Below are positions 7,901-23,386 of a DNA stretch of 32,000 nucleotides, in pieces. The stretch comes from Candidatus Velamenicoccus archaeovorus (GTDB lineage Bacteria > Omnitrophota > Gorgyraeia > Velamenicoccales > Velamenicoccaceae). Numbering within the stretch: the first letter of the stretch is position 1; the number at the start of each line of letters is the position of its first letter. Position numbers and translations under genes: made by a program. The notes beneath the pieces are model-generated. The model had not been told where the DNA came from. It made no database searches and saw nothing but the letters and a program-made list of their open reading frames with translations. The stretch spans positions 1,830,001 through 1,862,000 of the forward strand of contig NZ_CP019384.1 in assembly GCF_004102945.1 (NCBI RefSeq). The letters run 5' to 3'.

Positions 7901-7936
7901 AAAAAATTTGAGCCCCGGGATAAACCCGAGGCTCAA
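7901..7936 (-). terminator. Intrinsic terminator (minus strand)
   Basis: Minus strand TTGAGCCTCGGG-TTTAT-CCCGGGGCTCAA (12-bp stem, one mismatch) followed by ATTTTTT. Confidence 0.5.
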
Positions 7937-8072
7937 AATTTGGCTGCCCTTCGCACTCTCGGCCAAAAAATCCGCTGAGATTTTTTGGCCTTGCGAAGGA
8001 CGCCAAATTTTTACAGAGTAAAAATTTGGCTGCCCCTATTGGACGAGTTTCGCAACTGGCTGCTCCAGCCAG
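7935..8072. repeat. Nested and alternative hairpins built on a repeated 15-mer AAAATTTGGCTGCCC
   Basis: The exact 15-mer occurs at 7935-7949 and 8021-8035. A long hairpin spans 7935-8011: outer arms 7935-7955 and 7992-8011, inner 11-bp stem 7961-7971 with 7980-7990. A competing perfect 13-bp hairpin pairs 8002-8014 with 8018-8030. A further 7-bp hairpin lies at 8056-8072. Confidence 0.6.
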
Positions 8073-8088
8073 AATATTCTTCTGTGTT

Positions 8089-9102
8089 CTAAGTTATCGA
8101 GCCATCCCAAGAGGCTACCCCAAGAAAATCCATTTGCTTTGGCTCAAAAGTTAGCCCCCTACAACTAACCTTTTTCCCTATGTTATCAGCAACTTGCTGC
8201 GATTGATCAAATACTTTAACTTTAATTGGCCGAATATACTGGCCTTCCTCCAGATGAGTAGTCCTATTGCTTGATATGCCCATCCTAATAGTGAGCTCGG
8301 CGAAGAAGTCTAATTCGGGGAAAGAATAACCTATTATATTAATTTCATCTGCCTTCTTTAATTCTTCGAAGGCTTTAGACCAAAGATCATGAATCCCCTC
8401 AAAAACTTTAAAGTAAGTGGGTGGAACAATGAAGGGAATTGCGTTTGTTTGTAACTCAAACTGTTCGATGGTATCTCTCAATCCTCGTAACGCACAATAA
8501 TATATACGACCCTTGCTAATATCGTCATTTTGCATTTGTTTATAAAAATCGCCTCTCGGCCTTAAATGTGGAGGGAAGAAAAACCAATTAACGGAGCCAT
8601 GCAACTTATAAATCGTTAATTCTCTGCCAGAATATCCTTGTGTATTCCTATACTGCCAACCGATGCCTAGCTCGTCCAACACTGATTCTAAGAGACAGTC
8701 CCAGTTAAATGTAAAAATTAGATCTTGAGCAGGATTCAATCTTGCAACAAATGAATTATAAAAATCCGTTCTCTGCTTATTTTCAACTTTTTCATTAAGA
8801 TAGAAGGCAAGAATCAATAACCAGCCTTTCCTAACAAAGGAATATTGTTCTACCAGTATTCCTTCTTTTAAACCGGCGTCTAACAAACTAATGAATTTTT
8901 CAAAATTAGTCTCTGGTTCTCCAGATGGATAAAGCATCGCATCCACGACGGCATATTCTTTTTCAAATTCTTGAAGGCATGGCAAATTTCTGTCTCTTAA
9001 ATCCTCACAGTAAAATCTTCTTAATTCTGCGAAGAGATTGCTGATAGCAGGCAGACCTGCCGGGACAGAAAATCCAGCTCCTAACATAAATATCCTTTTC
9101 AT
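8089..9102 (-). CDS. Stand-alone SIR2-like (SIR2_2 family) protein
   Basis: 337 aa. Motifs FMLGAGFSVPAGLP, IFTFNWDCLL, YKLHGSVNWFF and IIGYSFPELD match the order of SIR2_2 motifs. RBS GAGGAAAGAG. Confidence 0.85.
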   Translation of the reverse strand: MKRIFMLGAGFSVPAGLPAISNLFAELRRFYCEDLRDRNLPCLQEFEKEYAVVDAMLYPSGEPETNFEKFISLLDAGLKEGILVEQYSFVRKGWLLILAFYLNEKVENKQRTDFYNSFVARLNPAQDLIFTFNWDCLLESVLDELGIGWQYRNTQGYSGRELTIYKLHGSVNWFFFPPHLRPRGDFYKQMQNDDISKGRIYYCALRGLRDTIEQFELQTNAIPFIVPPTYFKVFEGIHDLWSKAFEELKKADEINIIGYSFPELDFFAELTIRMGISSNRTTHLEEGQYIRPIKVKVFDQSQQVADNIGKKVSCRGLTFEPKQMDFLGVASWDGSIT

Positions 9103-9119
9103 CTCTTTCCTCAGAACAA

Positions 9120-9152
9120 AACTCTCTGTAATTTATTAAATCACAGAGAGTT
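9120..9152. promoter_or_regulatory. Inverted repeat AACTCTCTGT-N13-ACAGAGAGTT in divergent intergenic region
   Basis: Perfect 10-bp arms read directly. It lies between the divergent starts at 9102 (-) and 9213 (+). Confidence 0.35.
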
Positions 9153-9212
9153 AGATAAATAAAACTGCCCGAACTGGACGCCAGACGAACTTCACAACTC
9201 CAAGTGATACAT

Positions 9213-9596
9213 ATGGTTGTGAGAATTTACACTCGCAGGAGCAAGAAACAATTAATCCGTTTTGGCGATCCTTTGCCTGAGAAACCTCAGCGGGCAAAGC
9301 GAATTTATCAAAATGTTATCTACGAAGGCCTCAAACTTCAAGCCTTCATTAATAACGGTACTTCCAGAATAACTTGGGCACAAACCCGTAAAGAGTTAAA
9401 AATTTCAGAATCCAAGTTAGCACACTTATTGAAAATAATCAATCAGTTACCGGCCGATTTCGTCGAAAACATGAGATCATGCGACAATCCGGAAATCCTA
9501 AAAATCTTCACCGGTCGAAGACTATTGCAAATCTCTCGCCTGAAAACCGAGAAAGAACGACGAAAAGAAATCGATCGTCTATTACCGAGAATTTAG
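9213..9596 (+). CDS. Hypothetical small protein with possible ParB/KorB-like HTH
   Basis: The ORF-track start at 9204 is GTG; the first ATG is at 9213. The segment ISESKLAHLLKIINQLPADFVENM resembles the HTH region of ParB-type proteins. No clear RBS, so weak support. Confidence 0.45.
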   Translation: MVVRIYTRRSKKQLIRFGDPLPEKPQRAKRIYQNVIYEGLKLQAFINNGTSRITWAQTRKELKISESKLAHLLKIINQLPADFVENMRSCDNPEILKIFTGRRLLQISRLKTEKERRKEIDRLLPRI

Positions 9597-9614
9597 ATAT
9601 CTTTGCCCTTTATA

Positions 9615-10649
9615 TTATTGAATATTATCTATCTCTTTTTCTAAAGCACGGTATTTGTCTCTAACATCTTCGCCTAAGTAGAAATCGAGCATATCCTTCT
9701 TACTTAATTTTCCATCTTTAAGAAACTTGGTTAAATATGCCTGATTGAATTCCATAAGCATCATACTTCTTTCTAACTGTTTCAAAATCTCTTTATTGTT
9801 TGCTATATTCGCCTCTACAAGTCTTTTAACGTTCAAGATATCATTAATGTCCTTGATAATGCGATTGATAATCATAGAAAGAAATTTCGTATCCAATTCC
9901 ACGCCTTTGGCATTCAACGCAATATCCCGAGCCAACATATATGCGATCGCAAGGTTCGAATAGTCACCGGACTGAGAATTGATCACTGCAACGAAACCAA
10001 TACCCTTAATATAACCAACATTTTCATATGCTTTCAGAATGCTATTATCAATTAACGATATATCAAAAACAATTATGCCAACCTTAGAGTCCCTGTTAAC
10101 TTGGGCTTCTAATAACTGACTCCAAGCTGTGTCCATCTTTTTTGTAAAAATATCCTTGGACTCAATATCCCCAAGCCTTATACTCTTATCAAATTTGCAT
10201 TCAATGGCTATCCTTAAACTTGGGTCCCCGTTTAGCTCACAAATAATATCTCCTGTTTTATTCTTTGGCAAAACACCAGTAGCATTTCCAATCAAAACGG
10301 CTTTATCGTTAATTCTTCTTGACGTAAAGTAGTTATTTAAGAATTCCGCTACTTGGTCTTCTGCAACAAACCCCTTTACGGTTGTCTTATAAAATAACTC
10401 CTTTTTCATTTCAAAAATCATTTTCAAACTCTCTAGCTCAGTCCCAAGTTCATTCGTCGTCTTGGCAAGAAAAGCAGAAATCCTATCTTCCATTAATGCT
10501 AATACCCCTATATAAATTGCACGGATGAGCTTTTCGTCCCTCTCATCTACTGGGATATTATTAAAAAAATTAAAAACTACGTTATTCGATAACTCAAAAT
10601 CTTTTATCTCTATCCTGCCTAGCTTCTGATTTAAATTAATAACAGCCAT
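9615..10649 (-). CDS. PD-(D/E)xK nuclease-fold protein, RmuC/DUF2130-like architecture
   Basis: The central motif KGFVAEDQVAEFL...KTGDIICEL...RIAIECKFDKS follows the pattern G-x-x-x-E, D, ExK, and is flanked by helical or coiled-coil regions. The ORF-track start at 10655 is GTG. ATG 10649 has AAGGAG 5 nt upstream and is used here. Confidence 0.6.
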   Translation of the reverse strand: MAVINLNQKLGRIEIKDFELSNNVVFNFFNNIPVDERDEKLIRAIYIGVLALMEDRISAFLAKTTNELGTELESLKMIFEMKKELFYKTTVKGFVAEDQVAEFLNNYFTSRRINDKAVLIGNATGVLPKNKTGDIICELNGDPSLRIAIECKFDKSIRLGDIESKDIFTKKMDTAWSQLLEAQVNRDSKVGIIVFDISLIDNSILKAYENVGYIKGIGFVAVINSQSGDYSNLAIAYMLARDIALNAKGVELDTKFLSMIINRIIKDINDILNVKRLVEANIANNKEILKQLERSMMLMEFNQAYLTKFLKDGKLSKKDMLDFYLGEDVRDKYRALEKEIDNIQ

Positions 10650-10660
10650 CGCCACTCCTT

Positions 10661-10873
10661 CTATCGAATTTTATTCTGCCGATATCGCTTATAAATATTT
10701 TGGTGTGCATACGTCCCATGAGAGTCGGCCGCCATCAAGCCATCATATTCATGTTGAGGAACATCAAAATATTCATAGGCTGAGCCGTCCTTAAATTCAA
10801 TATACAACACTGCTGAGTCGGGATCATATCCTATAGCCGCCAAATTAGAAGAATTAACTGGTATCATTTCCAT
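10661..10873 (-). CDS. KTSC domain-containing protein
   Basis: 70 aa. VNSSNLAAIGYDPDSAVLYIEFKDGSAYEYFDVPQHEYDGLMAADSHGTYAHQNI matches the KTSC (PF13619) pattern. The start is 3 nt after the HerA stop. Confidence 0.8.
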   Translation of the reverse strand: MEMIPVNSSNLAAIGYDPDSAVLYIEFKDGSAYEYFDVPQHEYDGLMAADSHGTYAHQNIYKRYRQNKIR

Positions 10874-10876
10874 TTT

Positions 10877-12667
10877 TTACCCCTTTTTCAGATGTTTTTG
10901 TTCTCTCCAAGCCTTAACAATATTCTTGTAGTGCTCTGCTTTTACAGTAAACTTCTTGCGCCAACCTTCAACCAGCTTAGGATCATTGCTGCTCGGCCGA
11001 GGTTCCACAAGTTCAATTCTAACCCTCGAAGGGATATTTATTGCCTCGCCAACAATTATCGCTTCACCAATCCTTAAGGATGGCAAAAGCTCCATTAAAC
11101 TATTCATATTATTAGGTGAGGCAGATTGAACGTTATTTTTGTCACTACTATTGGTAAGCCTCAATGCAACGAATGTGCCTACTTGAGCAAGAATTGTCTC
11201 CGAAATTTCTGACGGCCTTTGAGTTACAACCATTGCTCCGACGCCAAATTTCCGCCCTTCCTTATATATCTTTTCAACAGAGCGCCTTGCATACCCATAT
11301 ATATGCGAACTGCTTTCATTCTTTGGTAAATAAGAATGCGCCTCTTCGAAAACCATCAATATTGCTCGGTTCCTTCCGGTATAATCTTCATGTCTACCCC
11401 AATACATTGAATCAAAAATTAACCGTGTTATTAAACCTACCGTTATATCGATTAACTCGAAAGGCACCTCATTTAAATCCAATATGGTAAGACGCTGGGC
11501 ATGATCAATCCAGTCACGGAGAAGTTGATCTATGTCATGCTTGCTTGTAGTATCATAAAAATCTCCGGGATTAAACATAAAGTCAAAGCGCGTATCTTTC
11601 AGACGAGAGAGTATTTTCATTTCGTAAGCATACATCGTCTGTTCTTTAGATTTAAAAGGCGCGACGGCTCCCATAGAATAAGGTTTAAATCTTGCCGGTA
11701 TTAATTTTTGTGGATCTCCCTCTGCCTCCAACTCTTCTTTATCTTTTGTCTGCTTGTCGGCTGTAGCCTCAGAATAGGTTGCATTAATTTCCCTGTTAAA
11801 GTCATACCACATCTTCCTTATGTCGAATGGGATGGGTGAATCCGCGGTAACAAAATCCACATTGACATTACCCGCCTTCAACCTGGATGCATTATCTTTC
11901 TTTAGTTTAACAACTGCTTCGCGCAATTTCTTGTCCTCTGGTTTTTCGCTACCGGCTTGTCTTCCAACCAAGAAAAACGAAAGCTCATCAAAAGACATTG
12001 CCCAAAAAGGAATATACAAAGGACTTTGGTCGTCATTTATCTTGAATACCTTAGCCTCTGTTCCAAATGCAGAAGAATACTCTCCATGAGTATCAACCAA
12101 AACCACCCTCGAACCTGGGTAGTCATTCAAAATGCGCTTTAGAATATGTGCAGTCGTATTTGATTTACCACTACCGGTAGAGCCGAGAATAGCGCTGTGT
12201 CGCAAGATAAAATTATGCAGATCCAAATAAACAGGAAGATTCTCAGAAGAAGAGTGTTTCCCTATCTCAATCGTCCCTGCGCTATGATCACCGTAAATAA
12301 TTCTAAGGTCATCTTCTGTTACAATATGGACTTCATCATTAATCGTGGGATATGTCCCTACTCCCTTTTTAAATACATCTCCTCCCAATTGTTCACCAAT
12401 AAGCTGAACCTGCAAAAATCTGGAACCATAATCCGGCTCGTACTTGTTGACTTCAATTAAGGAAGGGGTATTGCTGACAGAAGAAACTATCCCAAACAAC
12501 GTCAGTCCCCCTACCGGAATTTTTACAAATGTCCCAATTTGTCCAAGCTTATATAGCCGCCCATTAATAATCGGCGTTGCTGAAGGGATATCTCGAGAAA
12601 TCTCAACTTCAATGCTTGAACTATTAACATTAATTACTTTGCCTAAATATGTAATTTCATTTATCAT
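10877..12667 (-). CDS. herA: HerA-like (DUF87/FtsK-HerA superfamily) ATPase of SIR2-HerA systems
   Basis: 596 aa. N-terminal HAS-barrel-like region (GKVINVNSSSIEVEI...GQIGTFVKIP...GIV). Walker A ILGSTGSGKSNT, Walker B ILMVFEEAHSYLP. Its start overlaps the SIR2 stop by 11 nt. Confidence 0.9.
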   Translation of the reverse strand: MINEITYLGKVINVNSSSIEVEISRDIPSATPIINGRLYKLGQIGTFVKIPVGGLTLFGIVSSVSNTPSLIEVNKYEPDYGSRFLQVQLIGEQLGGDVFKKGVGTYPTINDEVHIVTEDDLRIIYGDHSAGTIEIGKHSSSENLPVYLDLHNFILRHSAILGSTGSGKSNTTAHILKRILNDYPGSRVVLVDTHGEYSSAFGTEAKVFKINDDQSPLYIPFWAMSFDELSFFLVGRQAGSEKPEDKKLREAVVKLKKDNASRLKAGNVNVDFVTADSPIPFDIRKMWYDFNREINATYSEATADKQTKDKEELEAEGDPQKLIPARFKPYSMGAVAPFKSKEQTMYAYEMKILSRLKDTRFDFMFNPGDFYDTTSKHDIDQLLRDWIDHAQRLTILDLNEVPFELIDITVGLITRLIFDSMYWGRHEDYTGRNRAILMVFEEAHSYLPKNESSSHIYGYARRSVEKIYKEGRKFGVGAMVVTQRPSEISETILAQVGTFVALRLTNSSDKNNVQSASPNNMNSLMELLPSLRIGEAIIVGEAINIPSRVRIELVEPRPSSNDPKLVEGWRKKFTVKAEHYKNIVKAWREQKHLKKG

Positions 12668-13859
12668 TTGATTCCTTCACAACCTCTTCGATTTTTTCCT
12701 GCTTACCAGATATCTCCATTAAAAACCTGACCATTTCTTTGAAATCTCCTATTTTTAGACGATTGCCGCCAACATCCCAACAAGCATCTAACAAATGGTC
12801 TGTCTTATTTTTCTTCCACTCGCCCAAGAAACCTCTAATTATAGCTTTTCGGGGTCCGATTGCTGTAAAGTTCAGAAAAGTCCCGAGTTCGCTTATTTTC
12901 GCCAAATCGTCGTCGGAAAAGAAAAATCCTATAATATGAAGTCTGTTATTTTGTTTCAAACTATCAATAATTACGGCATTTATATGCTCATCAGAAAAAG
13001 AATATCCGTTTATAACAAAAATTCCCTCTCCATCCTGTAGAAAAGTTCTAAGCCGATCAAAATAAGCGATGAAAGGTTGTTTTCTAGAAGTCTCGTACTT
13101 TTCTTTTGACGGATAAATTACCAACTCATTTTCATTGTTAGATTTTTTCGATTCAATCCCAAGTCGAACAACTTTGTTGGGTTTCCCTTTAGCATTTTTC
13201 TTCCAGAACCAATTGATCGAGCCATGTAGCTTCCAAAATCTTATCCAAGAAACCGGTGGAATATCGTATGTATTCTTGCTCTCAAGACTCTCCGGAAAAA
13301 AGAACGGCTGATAAGCACCGACAAATCCATCAAAATAGGGGATATGCAAACTCTCTAGCGCCTTCTCAACAACCAGGTCATAATTGGTAGTAAAAACTTC
13401 TTTGGCATAATCTCTACTCAACCAATTTAACCATGTCACAAATTTCTTTGTATGCGATAAATCAACACTTCTCTCCTCTTCGCCTATAATCTCGTAAATA
13501 CGATTGCATATTTCCATATCCAAATCGAGAGCATCTTTTCCGCTTACCTTCTCAAAATTTCTGTCCGGGCTATCATTTGCAAGCTGTCGAATCAAACGTA
13601 CTTGATCAAGAATCTGCTCAATCGTTAATGGATCGTCACCTTCTTTTACGCTTAATCCAGTTTCGACATTTTTTAAGATATTCTTTTGTTTCTCTCCCAG
13701 CTTCTCTCGAACTTTTTTTGTTAGCCCAGCGAGATCGGATATATTTAATGCCTTCGAAGTCCCGGCCCCCAACAAGAATCCAATTCTTTTAACATAAGAA
13801 AGCTGATTTCTTACTTCGCAAATTTCTTTTTGTGGGTCATAAAATATTTCATTTGCCAT
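12657..13859 (-). CDS. SIR2-like NADase-family protein (SIR2-HerA system partner)
   Basis: 400 aa. Motifs GFLLGAGTSKA, VFTTNYDLVVEKAL, WKLHGSINWFW and INGYSFSDEHIN. RBS GAGGTGA. Confidence 0.9.
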   Translation of the reverse strand: MANEIFYDPQKEICEVRNQLSYVKRIGFLLGAGTSKALNISDLAGLTKKVREKLGEKQKNILKNVETGLSVKEGDDPLTIEQILDQVRLIRQLANDSPDRNFEKVSGKDALDLDMEICNRIYEIIGEEERSVDLSHTKKFVTWLNWLSRDYAKEVFTTNYDLVVEKALESLHIPYFDGFVGAYQPFFFPESLESKNTYDIPPVSWIRFWKLHGSINWFWKKNAKGKPNKVVRLGIESKKSNNENELVIYPSKEKYETSRKQPFIAYFDRLRTFLQDGEGIFVINGYSFSDEHINAVIIDSLKQNNRLHIIGFFFSDDDLAKISELGTFLNFTAIGPRKAIIRGFLGEWKKNKTDHLLDACWDVGGNRLKIGDFKEMVRFLMEISGKQEKIEEVVKESNDK

Positions 13860-13886
13860 ATTTCACCTCTTGTAGCCCCCCCAGAA

Positions 13887-14876
13887 CTATTTAAAAATCA
13901 AGGCCGATTGCTTGCTTCTTATTTCTACCTCTTTTTCGCTTAACAAGGCACCATAGAAACCCTGTATTTCTGAATCACTTTTATTATTTTCAAGAAACCT
14001 GAAAGACGATGCTGCCAAATAATCTTTTTCTTTCTCAAAAGCCAGCCATTTTCTGCCATGCCCTTCTGCAGCTTCTCCGGTGGTATTTGAACCCGCGAAT
14101 ATATCCAACACAACATCACCCGGATCGGTAAGAAACTTAATAAAAAATTCTGGCAACTGCCTTGGAAAACGAGCTGGATGTCCTTGTATATTCGCTATCT
14201 TACAAAACCGCAAATATTTTGAATTGCTTTCCGAATTCGATATCTGCAAAAGATTGGGAGGAATGGCGCCACCATTGCCATTCCCGTTGCCAAACTCTTT
14301 AGAAATATCATGTCCGGATGGCCTCTTCTTTGGCGTATAGAATTTCTCGCTATTCTTCAATAATTGTTTCATCCTCTCCGAGTAAGGAGTTAATACCTTC
14401 TTGATATCAGCCTTGGGATATTCTGACTTCGAAAACCACCATATTGTATTAACAGCGTCTTTCGCCCTTATCTTTCGCTTATTAACCCATTCAATCGGGG
14501 ACGGCAATTTCGAAGGATTAAACCAAAAAAACTCCTCTGCCAAAAAGAACCCAAGATCCTCGCAGAATTTAATCAATATTTTGTAGTTATAAAGCGACCG
14601 GGTCGGCCTTCCTTTTTCGTAAGCACCCCCAAGATCAAGAACAAAACTGCCATCATTCTTTATTACTCTCTTGATTTTTTTTGCAAAAACAGCTAACCAA
14701 TCGACATAATCTTCTTGCGATTTATTACCGTATTCTTTTTGCCTCTGCAACGCAAACGGCGGCGATGTTATGACAAGGTTGACAGAATTATCAGAAAGAC
14801 AATCAAGCAATTCTAAAGAATCGCCAACATAAGCCTTCCCATATTGCGTTGTGTACAATGGAGATGGTAATTTCAT
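13887..14876 (-). CDS. Beta-class N4-cytosine/N6-adenine DNA methyltransferase (SPPF type, M.PvuII-like)
   Basis: 329 aa. Catalytic motif IV VITSPPFAL precedes the SAM motif I VLDIFAGSNTTGEAA, which is the beta-class order. SPPF is typical of m4C enzymes. Long stretches (FWFNPSKLPSPIEWVNKRKIR, PPNLLQISNSESNS, HPARFP) match my recollection of the M.PvuII family; this needs REBASE confirmation. Confidence 0.88.
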   Translation of the reverse strand: MKLPSPLYTTQYGKAYVGDSLELLDCLSDNSVNLVITSPPFALQRQKEYGNKSQEDYVDWLAVFAKKIKRVIKNDGSFVLDLGGAYEKGRPTRSLYNYKILIKFCEDLGFFLAEEFFWFNPSKLPSPIEWVNKRKIRAKDAVNTIWWFSKSEYPKADIKKVLTPYSERMKQLLKNSEKFYTPKKRPSGHDISKEFGNGNGNGGAIPPNLLQISNSESNSKYLRFCKIANIQGHPARFPRQLPEFFIKFLTDPGDVVLDIFAGSNTTGEAAEGHGRKWLAFEKEKDYLAASSFRFLENNKSDSEIQGFYGALLSEKEVEIRSKQSALIFK

Positions 14877-14897
14877 CGACCCAGCAAACTCCTTTTA

Positions 14898-16364
14898 TTA
14901 ATAAATATCCAAATCGCTCACCCAACTCGAAAGAATTTTCCACAGCACTGTTACAGCAAAATACACCTCTTTATCTTTCTGCTTCAATTCTTCTATTTGC
15001 GTAATAAACTTCTCCTGCTTTTGGGAACCAATTATCCAAGCAACCCACTTCCGTGAATTTTCATCGTTCATTACAGAAGATAAGTCTTTGACGGAGAAGT
15101 TACCGCTTTTGCTCAATGCCCAAGAAATACCCGCTCGCACATCTTCGCTGCCCTTTGGGAATAATCCAATAATTTCCTTGCTATAAATCTCTGCCAACCT
15201 GAAAAGCGACCGAGCAGATTCAGATCTAACATCGATGTTTATATCGTCAAATACCGTAACTAACGCTTGTAGCGCTTCTTTATTCTTGAGTTCCCCCAAC
15301 GCCCAAGCTGCTCCCGCTCTAATTTCTGGATGCTGCTCTTTATCTAATAAAACACGGATGAGCAATTCAGCAGAATAACTACTATTAATTTCCCCTAGAA
15401 TAATAACACCTTCCAGCCTATTTTCTAAATAAGTATCCCTCAAAACCTCTTTAAAGAAATCTATGCTTTCTTTCTGCCCAAGCTTCAAAATACTTGATGC
15501 CGCCTCCAAACGAATATAAATATGATCTTTGGAGTCTCCCATTTTCTCCAATAAAGATTTAATCACTTGCAGATCTTTGGGGAAATATGAAAGTGCTTTA
15601 GCCGCTGCATATCTTTCACTTAATGAAGTACTTTTTAACATTTTCTGATAATCTGAAGCCCCTCTCCCGCCTAAGCACTTAAAATCTTGAATAACAGGAA
15701 CAACAGATGCGATGATCTGATCTTGTTTAACAACGCCATTAACAGTTACAATAGGTTTTATAGTGATATTTTTCTTTTTTAAGCTCAGACTTATTGTTCT
15801 GTTATCTTCAGTACGTTTAAACTTTATTCTGTTATTTATCTCTACCACTGTACCATCGCAACTAGCAACAGCACATGGCCATGAAATCCTTGTTTCAAAT
15901 CCTTCTTCAACACCTTTCGGTCTCTCGGTAATAACTTTTTTGTCACGAAAAACCTTCCTCAAATAATTGACTTGAATATATTGCACAAGATCCGAAGCCT
16001 TCCAATCTGTAGGATCTTCTCCTGCTTTTTTACAGCTTACCAAGGCGATAAAATCTTCATCATTCAAACCAAAATCCCACCCGCGTTCCGGGCTAGCTAT
16101 TGAATGTGACATGGTTATTTGCAACTTGGTTTTTGCTCTTGATTCCACCCGTTTTCCACATTTCACACAAAGGATATCAGGAACACGAACACGCTTAATT
16201 TTAATCCCCTTCCAAATCTTAAAACTCATTGACCCACGTTCCAACTCTATAGGGGCATGGGTTTGCCGTTTTAAGTCATCAAATACTTTCTTAGTCCCTG
16301 TTGCTCCAATAGAAATTTTTTCTAGAAAGCTTACATCGGTTTTGAATGACTGTCTATTTGCCAT
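14898..16364 (-). CDS. Putative PD-(D/E)xK-like N-terminal domain fused to C-terminal HEAT (PBS-lyase type) repeats
   Basis: 488 aa. The N-terminus has ELERG...RVPDILCVKCGKRVESRAKTK, an Hjc/restriction-endonuclease-like E, PD, E-x-(R/K) pattern. The C-terminal ~230 aa carries repeated HEAT-like units (EIRAGAAWALGELKNKEALQALVTVFDD, IDVRSESARSLFRL, DVRAGISWALSKSG). Confidence 0.6.
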   Translation of the reverse strand: MANRQSFKTDVSFLEKISIGATGTKKVFDDLKRQTHAPIELERGSMSFKIWKGIKIKRVRVPDILCVKCGKRVESRAKTKLQITMSHSIASPERGWDFGLNDEDFIALVSCKKAGEDPTDWKASDLVQYIQVNYLRKVFRDKKVITERPKGVEEGFETRISWPCAVASCDGTVVEINNRIKFKRTEDNRTISLSLKKKNITIKPIVTVNGVVKQDQIIASVVPVIQDFKCLGGRGASDYQKMLKSTSLSERYAAAKALSYFPKDLQVIKSLLEKMGDSKDHIYIRLEAASSILKLGQKESIDFFKEVLRDTYLENRLEGVIILGEINSSYSAELLIRVLLDKEQHPEIRAGAAWALGELKNKEALQALVTVFDDINIDVRSESARSLFRLAEIYSKEIIGLFPKGSEDVRAGISWALSKSGNFSVKDLSSVMNDENSRKWVAWIIGSQKQEKFITQIEELKQKDKEVYFAVTVLWKILSSWVSDLDIY

Positions 16365-16380
16365 AGAAACCCTTCATGTT

Positions 16381-16563
16381 TTAATTTTTATTTCTCCATT
16401 GTTTCCGATCCTTTTCAATCAGGTCCCGGATAATTGATATAATGGACGCGCTTTTATTTTGTTTTTGTAACTCAAGAGCTTTTTCTTTCAGGAAGAAATA
16501 CTGCTCCTCGCTAATTTCAATAGTCGTCTTTTTCATGTTGGTTTTGCCTATTTGCCGGTTCAT
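16381..16563 (-). CDS. Small ribbon-helix-helix (CopG/Arc-like) protein, putative
   Basis: 60 aa. KKTTIEISEEQYFFLKEKALE...ASIISIIRDLIEK fits a beta-strand plus two helices. An alternative start is M10 (16536). It ends 16 nt before the HEAT-fusion gene. Confidence 0.45.
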   Translation of the reverse strand: MNRQIGKTNMKKTTIEISEEQYFFLKEKALELQKQNKSASIISIIRDLIEKDRKQWRNKN

Positions 16564-16566
16564 CTA

Positions 16567-16617
16567 TTTTGTGCTCCAATCGCTATATCCCTTTATTTAT
16601 AGCAATATAGCACAAAA
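16567..16617. promoter_or_regulatory. Imperfect inverted repeat upstream of the RHH gene
   Basis: TTTTGTGC (16567-16574) and GCTATAT (16582-16588) pair with the contiguous ATATAGCACAAAA (16605-16617). The left arm carries a 7-nt insertion. Confidence 0.3.
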
Positions 16618-16651
16618 AGGCTGGATTGAGAAGGAAAAACTAAAGCAACCG

Positions 16652-17401
16652 CTAAGATAGTTTTTTGGCAATATCTCTAATGCCGGTGTCCGGATGCATA
16701 AGAAGTTTTTCTCTATCGTAGTCGATAAAATCAGGGTGGAGGGATATGCGGTATTGCTTTGATCCGTTATTCTCAATAAATTTCTGACCGTCTTTGTCCA
16801 GCAAGCTACCTTCTAAAGCCGTTCGGAGGTTACTATAAATCTGAAATTTTTCAACATCAGCAATTATCGTGTCGGAACCCAATCTATGCCTATGAACCCA
16901 GCCGTCCCTTTTCTTTTTCAATTCCAACACCAAACGGAGGAATAACTTGAATACCGAATCGCCGAGTTTTATTTTATGATTATTTACCTCGACTGCATTG
17001 CTTCGTCTCATCGGTATAGTACCCGGGATATAAACCTTGTCGTAGCATTTGTACTCAAAATTTTTGTAATCCTTATTCTGCTTTTCCGTCAGCTCTCTAA
17101 TGACAAGATCCGCCCCTATATTCGGCCTCAGCATTCCGGAAATAATCTCGCCGAGTAGTTTGCAAATTTGATTATCAAACGTCTTTCTGTAAATGCTCTC
17201 TTTCTTCATATGTTTTTTTAGGTCGAGGGCATCGCTGCGTGTTATCGGTGTAAAAACAACAAGGATGCTATTATCTTTATAAATATACTTTAAGGTAGAT
17301 AGCTTTAACAACCTGCCGTTGCCGATATTAAGAACGAAAACCAAGCCCGCTCTTCTACCGTTCCCTTTCTTGTTCGCTATATAAAAATATCCCTTTTTCA
17401 T
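16652..17401 (-). CDS. Hypothetical protein with possible C-terminal OmpR/PhoB-type winged-helix domain
   Basis: 249 aa, RBS AAGGATAGGGG. The C-terminal segment IKLGDSVFKLFLRLVLELKKKRDGWVHRHRL...IYSNLRTALEG...GSKQYRISL follows the Trans_reg_C pattern. The N-terminal ~130 aa is unrecognised. Confidence 0.45.
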   Translation of the reverse strand: MKKGYFYIANKKGNGRRAGLVFVLNIGNGRLLKLSTLKYIYKDNSILVVFTPITRSDALDLKKHMKKESIYRKTFDNQICKLLGEIISGMLRPNIGADLVIRELTEKQNKDYKNFEYKCYDKVYIPGTIPMRRSNAVEVNNHKIKLGDSVFKLFLRLVLELKKKRDGWVHRHRLGSDTIIADVEKFQIYSNLRTALEGSLLDKDGQKFIENNGSKQYRISLHPDFIDYDREKLLMHPDTGIRDIAKKLS

Positions 17402-17423
17402 CCCCTATCCTTGTCCTGCGGGT

Positions 17424-18629
17424 TTATTTAGACTCTTCCATGCCCGGAGGTCTTTTCCTCCATGGATAGCCTCCCGATGCCTCCTTAAATCCAAGATCAT
17501 AAAGCTCTCGCATTTCCGCGGGATCAAAAAGCTCTTTTGCTTTTGACACATGCGTTGCAGGAATATAGGCAAGATTAAAATCTCCCTTTCCATATTTAGT
17601 AAAAACGTACAACTGGTAAAGATCGCCTATGCCCTGAGCATTTATTATCGTGTCAACCGCACGCTCAGCAATTGCTGAAAGCCTATCCGGAACCTCTTTA
17701 TAGATAGGATCAACATAGCCGTTTCTTATTACATAGATTGCGTATTTAAGCTTAGATGCATCCATCCCCTTCTCTTTAAGAGCCTTGTCGAACCCCTGCA
17801 AAACATCGTGCAGAAAAAATACCTGCCTAGTTATGCCGCCGTCGACGTGCATCTCGTCGTACGTCTTATCATTGGCTTCTACATTCAGATATACCGGCGG
17901 GAAAGCAATCGGGATAGATGCCGACGCCAATATGACCTTGCGAAACAGCTTTAAAGCTTTATCATCTCCTATAGACGCGATTTTTCCCATATCCCAGATA
18001 ACCAGCCGCTGCGCATCTAAATTAGTAGTTCCGATGTAAAGCCTGCACCCTTTGGCATACTCAGCAGCTATTTGCTTCATCAATTCTGCATCAAAGTATT
18101 TCTCAATCAGACGCTCAAGCGGGCGGGTATTTGCAAAAGAATTAATAAACGGGATTCGTATTCGGACGATATCTCTCGTAGAATATTTTGTATAAAACTC
18201 TTTTAACTTGTAATCATATTCATTCCCGAGAAAGGCGATTGGCGCAATTATCGCTCCCGTGCTAATCCCTGTTACTACTTTAAAAACCGGACGCACCCCC
18301 GATTCACTCCAACCACTTAATAAACCGGCCCCGTATGCGCCCTCAGCAGCTCCTCCTGAAATAGCCAGCGCATATAAAGTCTGGCTATTATTAAAGTCAA
18401 AAAAAGAACTCTGTTCTTTTTTCTCTTGCTCTAATAATTTGATAAAATCTTCTTTGAAAGAATCACTAGGCATACCGCTGAATGCCCTGACATCCTGCAT
18501 GCCGAAAACCCGCGCGCTGCTTAATAAATCCGGAGGGACGGCATGCCGAACGCTTGCGCAACCGGAAATAAAAAAAGCGATCATGCTGAACAAGCATAAC
18601 CGCCTTCTTGTTCCTACCCACTTATACAT
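17424..18629 (-). CDS. Patatin-like phospholipase, predicted lipoprotein
   Basis: 401 aa. Lipobox FFISGC; oxyanion region ISGGAAEGAYGAG; GxSxG as GISTGA; catalytic Asp in HVDGGI. Confidence 0.85.
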   Translation of the reverse strand: MYKWVGTRRRLCLFSMIAFFISGCASVRHAVPPDLLSSARVFGMQDVRAFSGMPSDSFKEDFIKLLEQEKKEQSSFFDFNNSQTLYALAISGGAAEGAYGAGLLSGWSESGVRPVFKVVTGISTGAIIAPIAFLGNEYDYKLKEFYTKYSTRDIVRIRIPFINSFANTRPLERLIEKYFDAELMKQIAAEYAKGCRLYIGTTNLDAQRLVIWDMGKIASIGDDKALKLFRKVILASASIPIAFPPVYLNVEANDKTYDEMHVDGGITRQVFFLHDVLQGFDKALKEKGMDASKLKYAIYVIRNGYVDPIYKEVPDRLSAIAERAVDTIINAQGIGDLYQLYVFTKYGKGDFNLAYIPATHVSKAKELFDPAEMRELYDLGFKEASGGYPWRKRPPGMEESK

Positions 18630-19089
18630 GAGAACTCCCCATAGATTCTAAAGAATCAACGAGTATCGAGATTCCTCTTTCCATTATTTTTTTATCCTTT
18701 TCTTTTAGACCGTTAACGAGCGTCTCAAGAAACCGTTTTCTATGCTTTTCTAATTTTGCCAAATAATATCTCCCTTTGTCGGTAAGCGCGACAGTAACCT
18801 TCCTACGATCTTTCTCAGTCCGATGACGAACAACCAATTTGCGTTCAACAAGTCGATCGACAAGATTGGTCGCGAATGCACCGCTAACAGAGAGTTCTTT
18901 TTTTATTTTGTTCATCTCGCTCGGCTTGCCGCTACTTAAGAAATTTAATATTTGAAATTCTAAAAAACTTATCTTCTGAGATAAAAAATAACGTTTAGTA
19001 TGGACATGTAAACTCCTCATAAGCCTCTGAAGCAACTCGGAAAGCTTTAAATAATACGGCCTTTCAAACACAAAACTCACCTTTTTCAA
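18622..19089 (-). CDS. MarR family transcriptional regulator
   Basis: Winged-HTH core LEFQILNFLSSGKPSEMNKIKKELSVSGAFATNLVDRLVERKLVVRHRTEKDRRKVTVALTDKGR. The ORF-track start is TTG, so the true start is uncertain. It overlaps both neighbouring genes. Confidence 0.85.
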   Translation of the reverse strand: MKKVSFVFERPYYLKLSELLQRLMRSLHVHTKRYFLSQKISFLEFQILNFLSSGKPSEMNKIKKELSVSGAFATNLVDRLVERKLVVRHRTEKDRRKVTVALTDKGRYYLAKLEKHRKRFLETLVNGLKEKDKKIMERGISILVDSLESMGSSHV

Positions 19090-19630
19090 TAAGAGTTATG
19101 CCTACTGCAACCACCTCGGAATCGTATAGTGATCCGCTGTTTTGTTGAATTTCCTGCAAAGCATCCTCAATATTTAATGTTGGCCGATACACCTGTGGAG
19201 AAACCATCGTATCTACCACATCGGCAACTGAAATTATTTTTGTAACAGGATTAATCTCCTCGGCATGTAAGCCGAAAGGATATCCTGAACCATTCAATCT
19301 TTCATGGTGCTGAAGCGCAACCTCCGCTGCCATAGATTCGGACTTTATGTCTTTTAAAAGAGAATAGCCCAACTCCGGATGCTTTTTCATGATCTCAAAT
19401 TCATCATTATTCAGAGGGCCGCACTTATTAAGGATCTCCACCGGTATTTGAATCTTTCCAATATCATGAACGACTGCTGCAAAATGAATATGCTTAATAT
19501 CTGCGTCGGGGTGGCCAATTTTTTGAGCAATAGCACACGCAAGCCGAGCAACCCGACTTCCATGAGCATAAACCGCCTCATGTTCGCTTAACATTTTTAC
19601 GATTGAAAACAATGTGTCAAAATTTTTCAT
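19064..19630 (-). CDS. Stand-alone HD-GYP domain protein (putative c-di-GMP phosphodiesterase)
   Basis: 188 aa. Motifs HGSRVA, VVHDIGK and HHERLNGSGYPFGL. Confidence 0.85.
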   Translation of the reverse strand: MKNFDTLFSIVKMLSEHEAVYAHGSRVARLACAIAQKIGHPDADIKHIHFAAVVHDIGKIQIPVEILNKCGPLNNDEFEIMKKHPELGYSLLKDIKSESMAAEVALQHHERLNGSGYPFGLHAEEINPVTKIISVADVVDTMVSPQVYRPTLNIEDALQEIQQNSGSLYDSEVVAVGITLIEKGEFCV

Positions 19631-19634
19631 GCAT

Positions 19635-22600
19635 TTAATGTTTTATAAACCGCCTCTCAAAACGCTCCAGATACCAGAAGACTACCGGCACTAGAATAAA
19701 TGTAAAGATGATCGAAGCGAGCAATCCGCCGATCATCACCGCGCCCATAGACTGTTTAATTTTGCTTAAACTCCACAACTGCGGTAGAACGCCTAAAATA
19801 ATGGCAAACGAAGTCATAATAATCGCGCGGAATTTAGCTGAAGCGCCCTGCCAAAGCGCATCCTTAATCGCCAATCCCTCTTTCATCTTAACTAAGGTCT
19901 GATCCAGAAGCAGGATCGCGTTATTCACTACCATACCTACCAACATAACCATACCCATCATCGAAGCCACATTCATGCTCTGGTTAAGATAAAACAGCCC
20001 CAAGACCATCCCGGCGACGGAAGCAAGCACTGTAGTCATGACCGCCAAAGGATAAGCAATTAGTGAATTCATGATCGCGCACAACAGCATAAAGGTTAGG
20101 ATGATCGCCAAAAGAAACGCCCTGCCCAATTCAACATTTGTTTCTTCCATATACTCCGAATATCCCGAGTATTTATAGTTATAGCCGGAGGGAAAGTTAA
20201 TTGCCTTGAACTGTTTATCCAACTTCTTGCTGACGATAACCATGGAGCTCTTGCCCAGATACCCGTCAATTCGTATGATCCTGTTGCGATCGCGACGCCA
20301 GATGGTGGGAACAGCCTTATCGATTTTCAATTCTCCTAATTCATTGATAGGGATTAACCCTTTGCGCGAAAGAATTGATATTTCTTTAATATCGTCGAAA
20401 TTCCGAGCATAAACATCATCCATCTCCACGTTGACTTTATATTCTTCACCTTTTTCTTTGTAAATATTGGAATCCTCTCCGTAAATGGAGTATCGCATTA
20501 CTGCGCCCACGCTAGCTGCGTTGAGTCCGAACTCATTAAGTTTTTCCTCATTAGGAACCAAGCTCATCTGCTTCTTAGGGCTTTTATATGAAAGAACTAC
20601 GCTCTGAAAATCGCCGCTTTTATTCATGATATCTTTCATCTGTCTGGCCAGATCAACCATAACCGTGTAATCCGTGCCGTAAAGGTCTATAGCTACATCA
20701 CCTTCAGACATCGAGCTTATACCTTGCCGTACGCAATACGCTTCTACATCCGGCATCTTTGAGATGAAAACGATCAGATCGTCAATAATCTGCATATCGC
20801 TGCGTTTACGCTCGGTTGAAGGGATTAAATCCAGGGTAACCTTGGCGTTCTCTACTCCATTATTCCCAATATTAGACAAGTAAGCTCGTTTCTCTGGTAT
20901 CGTATCCAAGAAAGCTTCAATATGCTTGACCGCCTCTTCTGTACGTTCGACGGTTGAGCCTTGAGGAAGAGAAAGATTGATAATGACCTTATCTTCGTCG
21001 GACTTAGGCTGAAAATCATTTTCCACATAAGAGAAAAGTAAAAATGAACCGATCAGCGCCAAACAACAAAAAGCAATAGTCGAGCGCGGAAAACGGAACA
21101 TAAGCTCAAATATATGCTTATACTGCTTTTTAAGAAATTCCGTTAGTTTGTCCACGGAAATCGGAATCATTCTTATTCTAGAAATAACCATTTGCATCAG
21201 TCCGGGCCGGAAAGGTTTCTCAGTTTTTTGAGGTTGAAGCATTGCCGCGCACAACATTGGAGTCAATGAGAATGAGGCCAGCAATGAAAAGCAAGTAGCA
21301 TAAACCACTGTCAGACCGAATGATTTCATCATCAGCCCAACCATTCCACCCATCATAGCAATCGGCATGAATACAACAAGATTGGTGCCGGTAGAAGCAA
21401 TGACGGGAATTAAAACTTCCTTAGTCCCGTCTATCGCTGCCTTTTCCGGATTGTCGTGGCGGCTCAAATGTACCATCACGTTCTCTAAAATTACTAAAGC
21501 ATTGGATATAAGTGTTCCGATTACCGTAGCGATGGCAAGAAGGGTCATCATGTTAATGGAAAAACCCGACATCCACATAGGAAATAGCGTAGAGATAATC
21601 GAGGTAGGAATAATGATTGCAGAAATAAACGACATATCCCAACGCCCCAGAAACAGCAACAATAGGATTATGGTTAAAACGATTCCTATAAATATGTTCC
21701 GTTCGGTATCCAATGTTTCATTCGCGATAAAAGTAGTGGTGTCGGTAGCAATTTCCAGATGCATTCCCTGAGGTAGACTTTTCTGGAATTCCGCTAACCT
21801 CTTACGCATTTGATGAGAAATGAATACAGCGTTACCGTCGGAAGCTTTATTGACGGAAAGGCCAACTACAGGTTTACCGTTATAGCGAGCGACTGTAGAG
21901 ATTTTTTTATAGCTATCCTCGACTGCTGCAATATCCTTCAGGTGAAATTCACCGCCGTCGGATGAAACTAGAAGGGTATCGGCAATCTCTTTTACGCTTG
22001 TGAATTCTCCGGTAAAGCGCACGCTAAGAGCATCGTATCCCTTTTCAATATCCCCCGCAGGCACATTTTTATTGCGGGCCATGAGCGCCGCAATCACTTC
22101 GTTGATACTAATATAATGCTGCTTCATAAGCATGGGGTCCAAACGGACATTAATCTGCCGTTTCTCCCCTCCATATACGTCGACCTTGGCTACGCCACGT
22201 ATGGATGAAAATTTGGTCTTTAAGGTTTTATCCGCATATTCGTATACTTCGCGCAGATCACCGGAATCACTGCTTAAAACCATGTCCAACACCGGCTCAA
22301 TTAAAGGATCATATTTCTCTATTACCGGTTTTTCTATTGCATCAGGCAGGTCGTTAAGAATGGCCTCAACCTTGTCCTTAACTTCTATAGATTTGACGTT
22401 GACGTCTGCGGAAAGTAAGAATTCTACGAATATGTATCCGAAACTATCGTAAGACTGGCTTTTTATCTTCTTAATCTCGGAAATCTCAGAAATAGCGTCT
22501 TCAATCTTTTTGACTACCAGCGTCTCCACCTCCAAAGGATTCGCCCCCGGATAAGTCACGGAAACCGTCACAATCGGAAAATCAATCTTTGGGGTCTTCT

Positions 22601-22697
22601 CAATCATCAGATTGGAATAGCTGAAAAACCCCAAGACCACGAATACCAACACAAACATGACCGTGGTAATCTTATGTTTAACAAAAAATTCTATCAT
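19635..22697 (-). CDS. RND efflux transporter permease (AcrB/AcrD/AcrF family)
   Basis: 1020 aa. It has the 12-TM layout with two large periplasmic loops and family-typical N- and C-termini. ATGA overlap with the adaptor gene. Confidence 0.95.
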   Translation of the reverse strand: MIEFFVKHKITTVMFVLVFVVLGFFSYSNLMIEKTPKIDFPIVTVSVTYPGANPLEVETLVVKKIEDAISEISEIKKIKSQSYDSFGYIFVEFLLSADVNVKSIEVKDKVEAILNDLPDAIEKPVIEKYDPLIEPVLDMVLSSDSGDLREVYEYADKTLKTKFSSIRGVAKVDVYGGEKRQINVRLDPMLMKQHYISINEVIAALMARNKNVPAGDIEKGYDALSVRFTGEFTSVKEIADTLLVSSDGGEFHLKDIAAVEDSYKKISTVARYNGKPVVGLSVNKASDGNAVFISHQMRKRLAEFQKSLPQGMHLEIATDTTTFIANETLDTERNIFIGIVLTIILLLLFLGRWDMSFISAIIIPTSIISTLFPMWMSGFSINMMTLLAIATVIGTLISNALVILENVMVHLSRHDNPEKAAIDGTKEVLIPVIASTGTNLVVFMPIAMMGGMVGLMMKSFGLTVVYATCFSLLASFSLTPMLCAAMLQPQKTEKPFRPGLMQMVISRIRMIPISVDKLTEFLKKQYKHIFELMFRFPRSTIAFCCLALIGSFLLFSYVENDFQPKSDEDKVIINLSLPQGSTVERTEEAVKHIEAFLDTIPEKRAYLSNIGNNGVENAKVTLDLIPSTERKRSDMQIIDDLIVFISKMPDVEAYCVRQGISSMSEGDVAIDLYGTDYTVMVDLARQMKDIMNKSGDFQSVVLSYKSPKKQMSLVPNEEKLNEFGLNAASVGAVMRYSIYGEDSNIYKEKGEEYKVNVEMDDVYARNFDDIKEISILSRKGLIPINELGELKIDKAVPTIWRRDRNRIIRIDGYLGKSSMVIVSKKLDKQFKAINFPSGYNYKYSGYSEYMEETNVELGRAFLLAIILTFMLLCAIMNSLIAYPLAVMTTVLASVAGMVLGLFYLNQSMNVASMMGMVMLVGMVVNNAILLLDQTLVKMKEGLAIKDALWQGASAKFRAIIMTSFAIILGVLPQLWSLSKIKQSMGAVMIGGLLASIIFTFILVPVVFWYLERFERRFIKH

Positions 22698-23386
22698 TGA
22701 ATTTGTTCCTTTTTATCTGTTTCTCCGGCGTCTACCACCAGTAGCCGGTCATTATCCTCAAGCATACTCTGTCCGCTGAATATTACTTTATCGCCGGATT
22801 GCAATCCTTCGGAAATTATCGCGCCGTAGCCGTTGCGTAATCGAATAACCACTTTGCGTTTTTTGGCAAGACCGTTCTCATCCTTCCAAATAAAATATTC
22901 ATCTCCGGCAATATCCAGCACTTCATTGGGAACGGCTAATACATTATGTAGCGTCGAAGTATGAGCGCAAACCACAAACGCAACGCTCGGATCCCGAGAC
23001 TTATCAAACTCTACCTCTACCGGGAACATACCAGCGTCCATGTCTAGTTCCGCACCTATGCTTTTTAATCGAGCGCTAACAACGAATCTATCCTCCGGAT
23101 CGTATATCTCTTGTCCTTCCTGAAGCGCATTTTTAACTTCACCTGTAACAAACCCACGGGCAACCCGCCCGTCAACGATCCTGACCGTAAACTGAGCGTA
23201 AACGGGGACATCTCCGGCTTTAATCACCCGAACCTCAACCGGCTTTCCCGCCTTCTTCCATTCCCCATAGAAACTGACAATTGTCTTACCGCGTGCTGCC
23301 TTGACCGCGTGAATACGCAGTGGAACGGAAGCTAAACTAAGGATAATGATTATTAAATATATTGTTTTTCGCTTAAAGTTTTTCAT
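22694..23386 (-). CDS. Short RND periplasmic adaptor (MFP-like) subunit
   Basis: 230 aa with an N-terminal signal or anchor. Beta-rich C-terminal region (VLAVPNEVL...YFIWKDENG...KRKVVIRLRNGYGAIISEGLQSGDKVI). Positioned between the TolC and RND genes. Confidence 0.7.
   Translation of the reverse strand: MKNFKRKTIYLIIIILSLASVPLRIHAVKAARGKTIVSFYGEWKKAGKPVEVRVIKAGDVPVYAQFTVRIVDGRVARGFVTGEVKNALQEGQEIYDPEDRFVVSARLKSIGAELDMDAGMFPVEVEFDKSRDPSVAFVVCAHTSTLHNVLAVPNEVLDIAGDEYFIWKDENGLAKKRKVVIRLRNGYGAIISEGLQSGDKVIFSGQSMLEDNDRLLVVDAGETDKKEQIQ

Follow-up and report, generated by a model that had tools for sequence, protein, structure and literature searches.

A HEAT-repeat protein encoded beside an M.PvuII-type methyltransferase as the probable restriction endonuclease of a widespread Type II cassette

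What is the role of a protein that joins a nuclease-like domain to HEAT repeats and is encoded next to a DNA methyltransferase? The question arises in a window of 32,000 nucleotides (nt) from Candidatus Velamenicoccus archaeovorus (contig NZ_CP019384.1, positions 1,830,001 to 1,862,000), the whole stretch of DNA analysed here, whose list of open reading frames (ORFs) contains a frame of 488 amino acids (aa) with an ATG start at 14898..16364 on the minus strand. With a probability of about three in four, we regard this protein as the restriction endonuclease (R) of a two-gene Type II, probably Type IIP, cassette, acting with the adjacent M.PvuII-type methyltransferase (M). Its function would thus probably be ordinary Type II restriction-modification of PvuII specificity. 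A first-pass annotation had correctly seen the neighbouring methyltransferase, which is the next gene downstream, and had suggested a modification-sensing endonuclease; it missed the minus strand and a central sandwich-barrel-hybrid beta-barrel (aa ~155-230). The elements of the cassette are as follows.

14898..16364, minus strand: R gene, encoding a putative Type II restriction endonuclease of 488 aa with three domains (ORF, ATG start)
15915..16364, minus strand: domain 1 (aa 1-150), putative basic Hjc-like PD-(D/E)xK nuclease core (Foldseek similarity to Hjc, secondary structure, isoelectric point (pI) 9.3)
16125..16187, minus strand: putative active-site motif (aa 60-80), R-V-P-D63-...-E74-S-R76-A-K78 (conservation, strand positions)
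15660..15914, minus strand: domain 2 (aa 151-235), predicted sandwich-barrel-hybrid (lipoyl/biotinyl-like) beta-barrel (Foldseek, all-beta model)
14898..15659, minus strand: domain 3 (aa 236-488 and stop codon), acidic PBS-type HEAT-repeat solenoid (Pfam, 14 model helices, Foldseek)
14877..14897, minus strand: spacer between R and M, containing the presumed AAGGAG ribosome-binding site of M (co-transcription presumed)
13887..14876, minus strand: M gene, encoding a 329-aa M.PvuII-type N4-cytosine DNA methyltransferase (beta class, TSPPF motif; match to 1BOO, PADLOC)

Our view that the putative nuclease is the partner of the methyltransferase derives from their strict linkage, from the position of related R genes behind orthologues of the PvuII controller protein (C.PvuII), and from the avoidance of the PvuII site CAGCTG in the hosts. 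The window methyltransferase matches the M.PvuII structure (PDB 1BOO) over nearly its full length with an E-value of 2.5e-140, is 62% identical over 316 aa to M.PvuII of plasmid pPvu1, and scores 524 bits with the PADLOC model MTase_II. It follows the R gene after 21 nt in the window, and in 90 of 93 loci tblastn places an M.PvuII-like homologue (60-77% identity) directly behind R, in the same orientation; as the other three end at a contig edge, the linkage holds in 90 of the 90 informative loci. The gap between the two genes measures 3-47 nt, with overlap in some loci and with two exceptions of 225 and 460 nt, and in each of six homologue loci inspected individually, the next gene downstream has the same orientation and encodes an N6_N4 methyltransferase of 333-350 aa. 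The flanking genes are unrelated between loci. R is thus strictly linked to one type of methyltransferase, with which it forms a mobile two-gene cassette.

This cassette belongs to a large family. Identity to the 488-aa protein is 53-100% among more than 120 full-length homologues, and an exhaustive HMMER search with aa 1-235 yields 349 clusters at 50% identity, nearly all of them 485-525 aa long, with the shorter ones looking like fragments. In GTDB, scanned with one genome per species, relatives occur in 201 species representatives from more than 15 phyla of bacteria and archaea, with about 50% identity or more among the 80 listed, whose loci were fetched. The carriers among the fetched loci include Omnitrophota, Elusimicrobia, Planctomycetota, Nitrospirota, Chloroflexota, Verrucomicrobiota, Cyanobacteria, Thermodesulfobacteriota, Bacteroidota and Bacillota on the bacterial side, and Methanoperedens, Methanophagales, Methanothrix and Thermococci on the archaeal side; such a wide horizontal spread is typical of restriction-modification genes. 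One locus from an Omnitrophota genome (L015) shares 98.6% DNA identity with window positions 15364-17265. Some R genes are damaged beside a methyltransferase gene that still aligns over its length: in three loci (L038, L048, L053) they contain internal stops, and in a fourth (L017) the R gene is shortened and separated by a 225-nt gap from the methyltransferase gene. Disruption of R beside an aligned M is a decay path that leaves orphan M.PvuII-like methyltransferases.

The third line of evidence comes from the host DNA. Hexamer counts from 832 kb of host DNA, made up of 82 non-redundant loci that each cover about 10 kb surrounding the cassette, were compared with a maximal-order Markov expectation for 2078 hexamer classes, the hypothesis of CAGCTG having been fixed beforehand from the methyltransferase homology. 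CAGCTG is the most depleted of all classes, with 39 sites observed versus 184.4 expected (observed/expected 0.21, next lowest class 0.58; bootstrap interval over loci 0.13-0.29), which corresponds to z = -19 among all classes and -8.5 among palindromes. The depletion is present in the flanks alone (32 versus 137 expected) as well as inside the cassette (7 versus 37), and 61 of the 82 loci lack the site altogether; in the window, 2 sites were counted versus about 6 expected, with 0 in its 18-kb low-GC island. The one-base neighbours CAGCTT and CAGCTC are mildly enriched, and a relaxed specificity CMGCKG was ruled out, CAGCGG and CCGCGG not being depleted. N4-methylcytosine (m4C) is not a hotspot of mutation to T by deamination as 5-methylcytosine is. 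As, moreover, these otherwise unrelated genomes share only the cassette, the depletion argues for CAGCTG cutting encoded by the cassette itself, and CAGCTG is its probable specificity.

Distant subfamilies tie the R gene further to the PvuII system of Proteus vulgaris. Among the six that were sampled (L094, L095, L097, L098, L099 and L101), two (L094, L098) have the order R -> M with M.PvuII-like methyltransferases, and two others (L099, L101) have a divergent M.PvuII-like methyltransferase, then a helix-turn-helix protein of 78-81 aa, then the R gene (M <- -> C -> R). L095 has this latter layout with a different methyltransferase of 576 aa, and in L097 the R-family gene lies 105 nt from the contig end, with unrelated genes downstream and no methyltransferase visible. 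The helix-turn-helix proteins of L095, L099 and L101 are 49-59% identical to C.PvuII; they match the PADLOC model Control_protein (4e-25), and their best PDB matches are C.BclI (9e-17) and C.AhdI. Upstream of their genes lies a C-box-like element, ACTyATAGnnTGTAGA, in common with the region upstream of pvuIIC on pPvu1. In these three loci, the R gene of the present family hence stands behind a C.PvuII orthologue and its operator, in the slot that R.PvuII occupies on pPvu1. R.PvuII itself gives no blastp match with the 488-aa protein at E <= 10 and an hhalign P of 0.29, and no PvuII entry is found in the top 50 Foldseek PDB matches of aa 1-235. We therefore propose that, within the PvuII framework of M and C, R.PvuII has been replaced by the 488-aa enzyme, which is either not homologous to it or has diverged beyond recognition. 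Canonical R.PvuII-like enzymes, too, stand beside methyltransferases of equal similarity, as on an Apilactobacillus plasmid (65% identity). The 576-aa methyltransferase of L095 has two N6_N4 stretches and is encoded, together with the C.PvuII-like controller, at 2909-8969 of that locus, adjoining a PD-Lambda-5 defence pair; the specificity of this subfamily may differ from that of the others.

What does the protein itself look like? An AlphaFold2 model with 50 homologues as input has a mean predicted local distance difference test score (pLDDT) of 89.8 and a predicted template modelling score (pTM) of 0.84, and shows three domains: an N-terminal one (aa ~9-150), an all-beta one (aa ~155-230) and a helical one (aa 236-480). 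In domain 1, a helix (10-33) is followed by six strands (38-40, 64-66, 72-78, 83-88, 105-113 and 121-131) and a further helix (132-140), an order that fits an alpha-beta-beta-beta-alpha-beta core. In a Foldseek comparison of aa 1-235 with the PDB, eight chains of Archaeoglobus fulgidus Hjc are matched with probabilities of 0.82-0.98 and template modelling (TM) scores of 0.45-0.49 on Hjc length, and Hjc is the sole nuclease among the top 50 matches. The hhalign register against Sulfolobus (Sso) Hjc pairs G20 with G8, the PD with the PD, D63 with D42, E74 with E55, and R76 with K57. An Hjc/PD-(D/E)xK-like character had been read from three motif strings in the first-pass annotation, and these are all present, ELERG at aa 40-44, RVPDILCV at aa 60-67 and VESRAKTK at aa 73-80; as to the assignment drawn from them, fold and motif register speak for it, while the statistics are weak.

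Conservation singles out the same residues and shows that the motifs did not arise by chance. D63, E74 and K78 are invariant among 84 diverse members, so that the lack of conserved acidic or Lys residues, named beforehand as an observation that would refute a nuclease, is not what the family displays; position 76 is Arg in 73 members and Lys in 11. P62 and some 15 further residues of the N-terminal domain are invariant or nearly so, the positions conserved to at least 98% including G20, E42, W51, K55, K57, R60, P62, D63, C66, G70, E74, K78, S86, R94, W96, D104, K150, G155, E157 and W162. Across 101 loci, 20 conserved positions were checked and are identical to the window in nearly all, with D63, E74, R/K76 and K78 kept. 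In the model, D63 is placed where strand 2 begins, and strand 3 carries E74, R76 and K78, which matches the expected location of a PD...(D/E)xK site. Strands 2 and 3 of the domain thus bear a conserved D...(D/E)xK motif, in a variant form whose third residue is predominantly Arg. The putative nuclease assignment is based on fold, motif position and conservation and makes no use of significant sequence homology; membership in the PD-(D/E)xK superfamily is accordingly supported weakly, by motif and predicted fold. A zinc site formed by C66 and C69 was considered and dropped, C69 not being conserved in the wider family consensus.

Domain 1 is basic, with a mean pI of 9.3 and a net charge of about +7, and the invariant basic and aromatic residues W51, K55, K57, R60, S86, R94 and W96 are located in its loops; on the model, these are better candidates for DNA contacts than the HEAT domain. 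Domain 2, likewise basic in the subfamily of the window (pI 9.0), resembles the hybrid-barrel motifs of the RNA polymerase beta and beta' subunits (Foldseek probability 1.0, root-mean-square deviation about 2.4 A over 64-75 columns) and further matches biotin-carboxyl-carrier domains of the PDB. In domain 3, the PBS-lyase-type HEAT repeats that had been proposed for the C-terminal half are borne out by Pfam, with HEAT_2 (PF13646) at E 1.7e-21 and 76.7 bits (cut-off 27.7) and HEAT_PBS (PF03130) at E 4e-11 and 42.7 bits (cut-off 20.9), and by the model, an alpha-solenoid of 14 helices. The loop of aa 41-62 has a pLDDT of 46-66 when modelled without the rest of the protein and of 80-84 with it; this rise, together with the pTM, suggests that the solenoid packs against the N-terminal domain.

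The first-pass annotation had compared the HEAT repeats to the AlkD-type readers of base damage or modification, and here the results point elsewhere. With the full-length model, Foldseek finds alphaRep/PBS-HEAT proteins and CpcE as the best PDB matches of the solenoid, along with deoxyhypusine hydroxylase and importin-alpha, and AlkD-type proteins are absent from the top 50. The HEAT domain is acidic (pI 5.1-5.7, net charge -6 to -13) and diverges fast, being about 20% identical between subfamilies versus 36-50% for the N-terminal domain and 59-66% for the partner methyltransferase, which remains M.PvuII-like. Because it is acidic and diverges while the methyltransferase stays constant, the HEAT domain probably has a scaffolding, oligomerisation or regulatory role rather than that of an AlkD-like base reader, a conclusion that we hold with modest confidence. 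A role as carrier of the specificity was also considered and dropped, as M.PvuII-like enzymes remain the partners in four of the five sampled distant subfamilies that have a methyltransferase nearby.

For the cassette as a whole, we infer the following mechanism. The methyltransferase would produce m4C at CAGCTG and so protect the host DNA. The endonuclease, probably a homodimer, would use its N-terminal domain and its barrel, both of them basic, to bind CAGCTG sites that enter unmethylated on foreign DNA, and would cleave these with a Mg2+-dependent PD-(D/E)xK-type site made up of D63, E74, R/K76 and K78, with E42 as the likely third acidic residue. The acidic HEAT solenoid would pack on nuclease and barrel as a structural, oligomerisation or regulatory scaffold. 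Of the modification-sensing endonuclease suggested earlier, the part that stands is a very probable nuclease with a methyltransferase; sensing would persist only as the ordinary block of a Type II enzyme by cognate methylation.

Several observations weigh against a PvuII-specific restriction endonuclease. The N-terminal domain has no match among Pfam, NCBIfam, PADLOC restriction-enzyme or PDB sequence models: scans with Pfam, NCBIfam and PADLOC leave aa 1-235 without a match, the Hjc family PF01870 is not matched by any of 28 family members even at E <= 10, and neither a single-sequence nor a 28-sequence profile search gives a meaningful match among PDB sequences. In structure, the N-terminal domain resembles Hjc only weakly (Foldseek E about 1e-2, TM below 0.5), and the hhalign comparison of the N-domain profile with Hjc, at P 0.013-0.023 and a probability of 2-3%, is not significant as a database search; enlarging the Hjc side from a 3-sequence to a 62-sequence alignment, which comprises only Sulfolobales-like sequences, left P at about 0.02. 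The canonical Lys of (D/E)xK is mostly Arg in this family. The subfamily of the window, with its co-directional R -> M order, has no C gene, and a C-box search of the window found none, so the safe establishment of the cassette in a new host is unexplained. The probable specificity is based on the 62% identity of the methyltransferase and on site avoidance. Finally, one locus (L074, Pleurocapsa minor) has 9 CAGCTG sites in 13.5 kb together with an apparently intact R gene, in which C66L is the sole change at the positions checked; its system may be inactive or recently acquired. Searches for viral relatives were of no further help, as Foldseek of the N-terminal domain against viral structures (BFVD) yielded only weak, mostly unnamed matches, and tblastn gave no phage match and one irrelevant plasmid match to HEAT repeats only.

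How do other explanations fare against the same evidence? The protein might be an inactive nuclease-like fold that serves as a HEAT-based accessory of the methyltransferase, targeting, stabilising or regulating it, such that the pair would be an epigenetic module and no defence system. The missing sequence-model matches and the prevalent Arg would agree with this, as would the fact that HEAT repeats typically mediate protein-protein contacts. However, the motif residues, acidic and basic alike, do not vary across 101 loci from two domains of life, the gene stands behind a C.PvuII orthologue and operator that in PvuII control a toxic R gene, and occasional R copies are pseudogenised beside an apparently intact M gene, as expected of a toxic gene. 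Methylation alone, moreover, does not account for a depletion so strong and so specific for CAGCTG, and we deem an inactive partner unlikely. A structure-specific nuclease, i.e. an Hjc-like resolvase of junctions or branched DNA or a repair enzyme that is simply carried along with the methyltransferase, could be deduced from Hjc being the only nuclease structure matched, in an agreeing motif register. Yet this similarity is at the level of the superfamily, PF01870 is not matched, and neither the linkage to one methyltransferase type in all 90 informative loci nor site-specific avoidance would be expected of a repair resolvase, nor is such an enzyme suggested by the patchy, horizontal spread in islands beside other defence genes; we consider it highly improbable.

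The remaining alternative is an endonuclease that senses or depends on modification, with the HEAT solenoid reading base modification or damage in the manner of AlkD. The very fusion of HEAT repeats to a nuclease-like domain beside a methyltransferase invites this thought, the solenoid is kept at constant length in every full-length member, and the pTM suggests that it is rigidly integrated with the nuclease. Its acidity (pI 5.1-5.5), a fold that matches alphaRep, PBS lyase and importin and not AlkD, and its divergence between subfamilies that retain an M.PvuII-like methyltransferase all argue against a reader of bases. A nuclease that cut the modified site, in turn, would kill a cell whose neighbouring gene supplies that very modification, and the avoidance of CAGCTG by the hosts indicates that unmodified sites are cut. 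We judge this explanation quite unlikely, and prefer the ordinary Type II endonuclease, blocked by the methylation of its partner.

Within the Type II reading, a more speculative question is whether the solenoid is a functional module new to restriction enzymes, for which we see some, rather slim, prospect. As an acidic, DNA-mimicking gate or an oligomerisation switch, it may hold the basic loop of aa 41-62 and thereby delay or license cleavage, which could account for establishment independent of a C protein in the subfamily of the window. Alternatively, the HEAT surface may act as a sensor or decoy for phage anti-restriction proteins, or the solenoid may clamp and wrap the DNA in a new mode of CAGCTG recognition. 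If it were such a module, this would be the founding example of a Type II enzyme regulated by an alpha-solenoid.

The genomic surroundings of the cassette in the window comprise the following elements.

16381..16563, minus strand: 60-aa ribbon-helix-helix-like ORF, 16 nt upstream of R, a possible local regulator of uncertain membership in the cassette (ORF, faint family matches)
16604-16632, minus strand: promoter-like site upstream of the 60-aa ORF
16652-17401, minus strand: 249-aa ORF without family match (ORF)
10877-13859, minus strand: genes for SIR2 (400 aa) and HerA (596 aa), an anti-phage pair that comes next after M in the downstream direction (PADLOC)

The 60-aa ORF and the 249-aa ORF are found elsewhere only in the near-identical Omnitrophota contig L015. 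The former was dropped as a conserved controller, being absent from all other loci; it might be a local substitute for the controller protein. SIR2 (1.9e-117) and HerA (8e-159), as scored with PADLOC, belong to a run of genes that overlap or have very short gaps. A functional coupling of the cassette to this pair was likewise dropped, since tblastn finds no counterpart in any other locus; the only other HerA-type gene near a cassette, that of L004, is unrelated and stands in another gene order. SIR2-HerA thus looks like a defence-island neighbour and not a part of the cassette. Following HerA with gaps of 3-5 nt, window positions 9615-10873 (minus strand) encode a KTSC-domain protein of 70 aa and a protein of 346 aa without family match, which carries a D...IAIECKFDK stretch resembling another PD-(D/E)xK motif and could be an unrecognised effector of the SIR2-HerA module. 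A weak match to SIR2_2, below threshold (E 3.7e-4, 21 bits versus a cut-off of 24.5), is given by a 337-aa ORF at 8089-9102 (minus strand); the island may thus have another SIR2-like defence gene at its edge.

From about 8000 to 26000, the GC content of the window is 0.37-0.43, between flanks of 0.50-0.56, and this region holds the defence genes together with patatin, MarR, HD-domain, RND-efflux, OEP and TetR genes. The search for tRNA genes in the window was negative, and the ORFs scanned include no integrase; horizontal acquisition of an island could explain the region, as could a chimeric assembly. In further loci, too, the cassette has other defence genes beside it: at 3802-7932 of L004, a DruA-like gene, a gene for 382 aa of no assigned family and a DUF87/HerA gene stand immediately upstream of it, and at 3618-4394 of L094, an SRA-HNH (ScoMcrA-like) Type IV enzyme is encoded downstream.

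If the Type II reading is correct, a large unannotated family, with at least 349 clusters and relatives in 201 GTDB species, anaerobic methanotrophic archaea (ANME) and methanogens included, becomes a family of restriction endonucleases with predictable specificity. The source databases name the homologues of the 488-aa protein only 'HEAT repeat protein' or 'hypothetical', and all that present defence-annotation tools report for these loci is an 'orphan' or solitary Type II methyltransferase. Thermostable isoschizomers of PvuII could come from the thermophilic carriers (Thermosulfurimonas, Chloroflexus, Methanophagales). The cassette would also be a case of R-gene displacement, in which the methyltransferase, controller and operator of PvuII were kept and the nuclease was swapped for an unrelated protein three times larger. 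Unrelated isoschizomers are common, so a displaced R gene alone is not surprising. The features of note are the three-domain architecture, the clean displacement within a conserved framework of M, C and operator, and the breadth of the family. The first-pass annotation had not recognised the domain combination from any characterised restriction or defence family, and this holds true: no curated restriction-enzyme or defence model (Pfam, NCBIfam, PADLOC REase_II) matches the 488-aa protein or its homologues in L094 and L095, and a literature search, with REBASE outside its scope, found no description of a HEAT-repeat restriction enzyme. Most likely, then, the union of nuclease core, beta-barrel and HEAT solenoid is a previously undescribed restriction-enzyme architecture. 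It would be the first to join a minimal Hjc-like core, a hybrid barrel and a HEAT solenoid, and it raises the question of what an alpha-solenoid does in a sequence-specific nuclease.

How does this architecture relate to known systems? AlkD uses a basic concave surface for DNA. With AlkD and AlkC, the protein has in common an alpha-helical repeat solenoid in a putatively DNA-acting protein; it differs in the acidity of this solenoid, in the lack of any such protein among the top 50 fold matches, and in having its predicted catalytic domain as a separate nuclease. Closer in repeat type are CpcE/CpcF, NblB and alphaRep, with Foldseek E-values of 1e-6 to 1e-8 and with both HEAT_PBS and HEAT_2 above cut-off. 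However, the NCBIfam models of bilin lyases remain far below theirs (CpcE 27.6 bits versus 330), there is no phycobilisome context, and bilin lyases differ also in the fusion to a nuclease-like domain found here. Hjc (PDB 2WCW, 1HH1) shares a similar predicted core fold, with Foldseek probabilities up to 0.98, and an E...PD...ExK pattern in the same register, although this similarity is statistically weak and does not extend to PF01870. Compared with Hjc, the family has a long basic insertion (aa 41-62), mostly Arg at the third motif position and an extra invariant Lys, K78, and its core is fused to barrel and solenoid in a gene context of restriction-modification, not recombination.

The system nearest in organisation is PvuII of Proteus vulgaris pPvu1, with R.PvuII, M.PvuII, C.PvuII and m4C at CAGCTG. 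Its endonuclease of 157 aa stands in contrast to the three-domain protein of 488 aa described here, with which it has no detectable similarity, and the subfamily of the window departs from it by its co-directional R -> M order without C gene or C-box. The methyltransferases, by contrast, are orthologous, with 59-64% identity, the distant subfamilies have the C protein, the C-box-like operator and the M <- -> C -> R order in common with PvuII, and the avoidance of CAGCTG points to the same recognition sequence.

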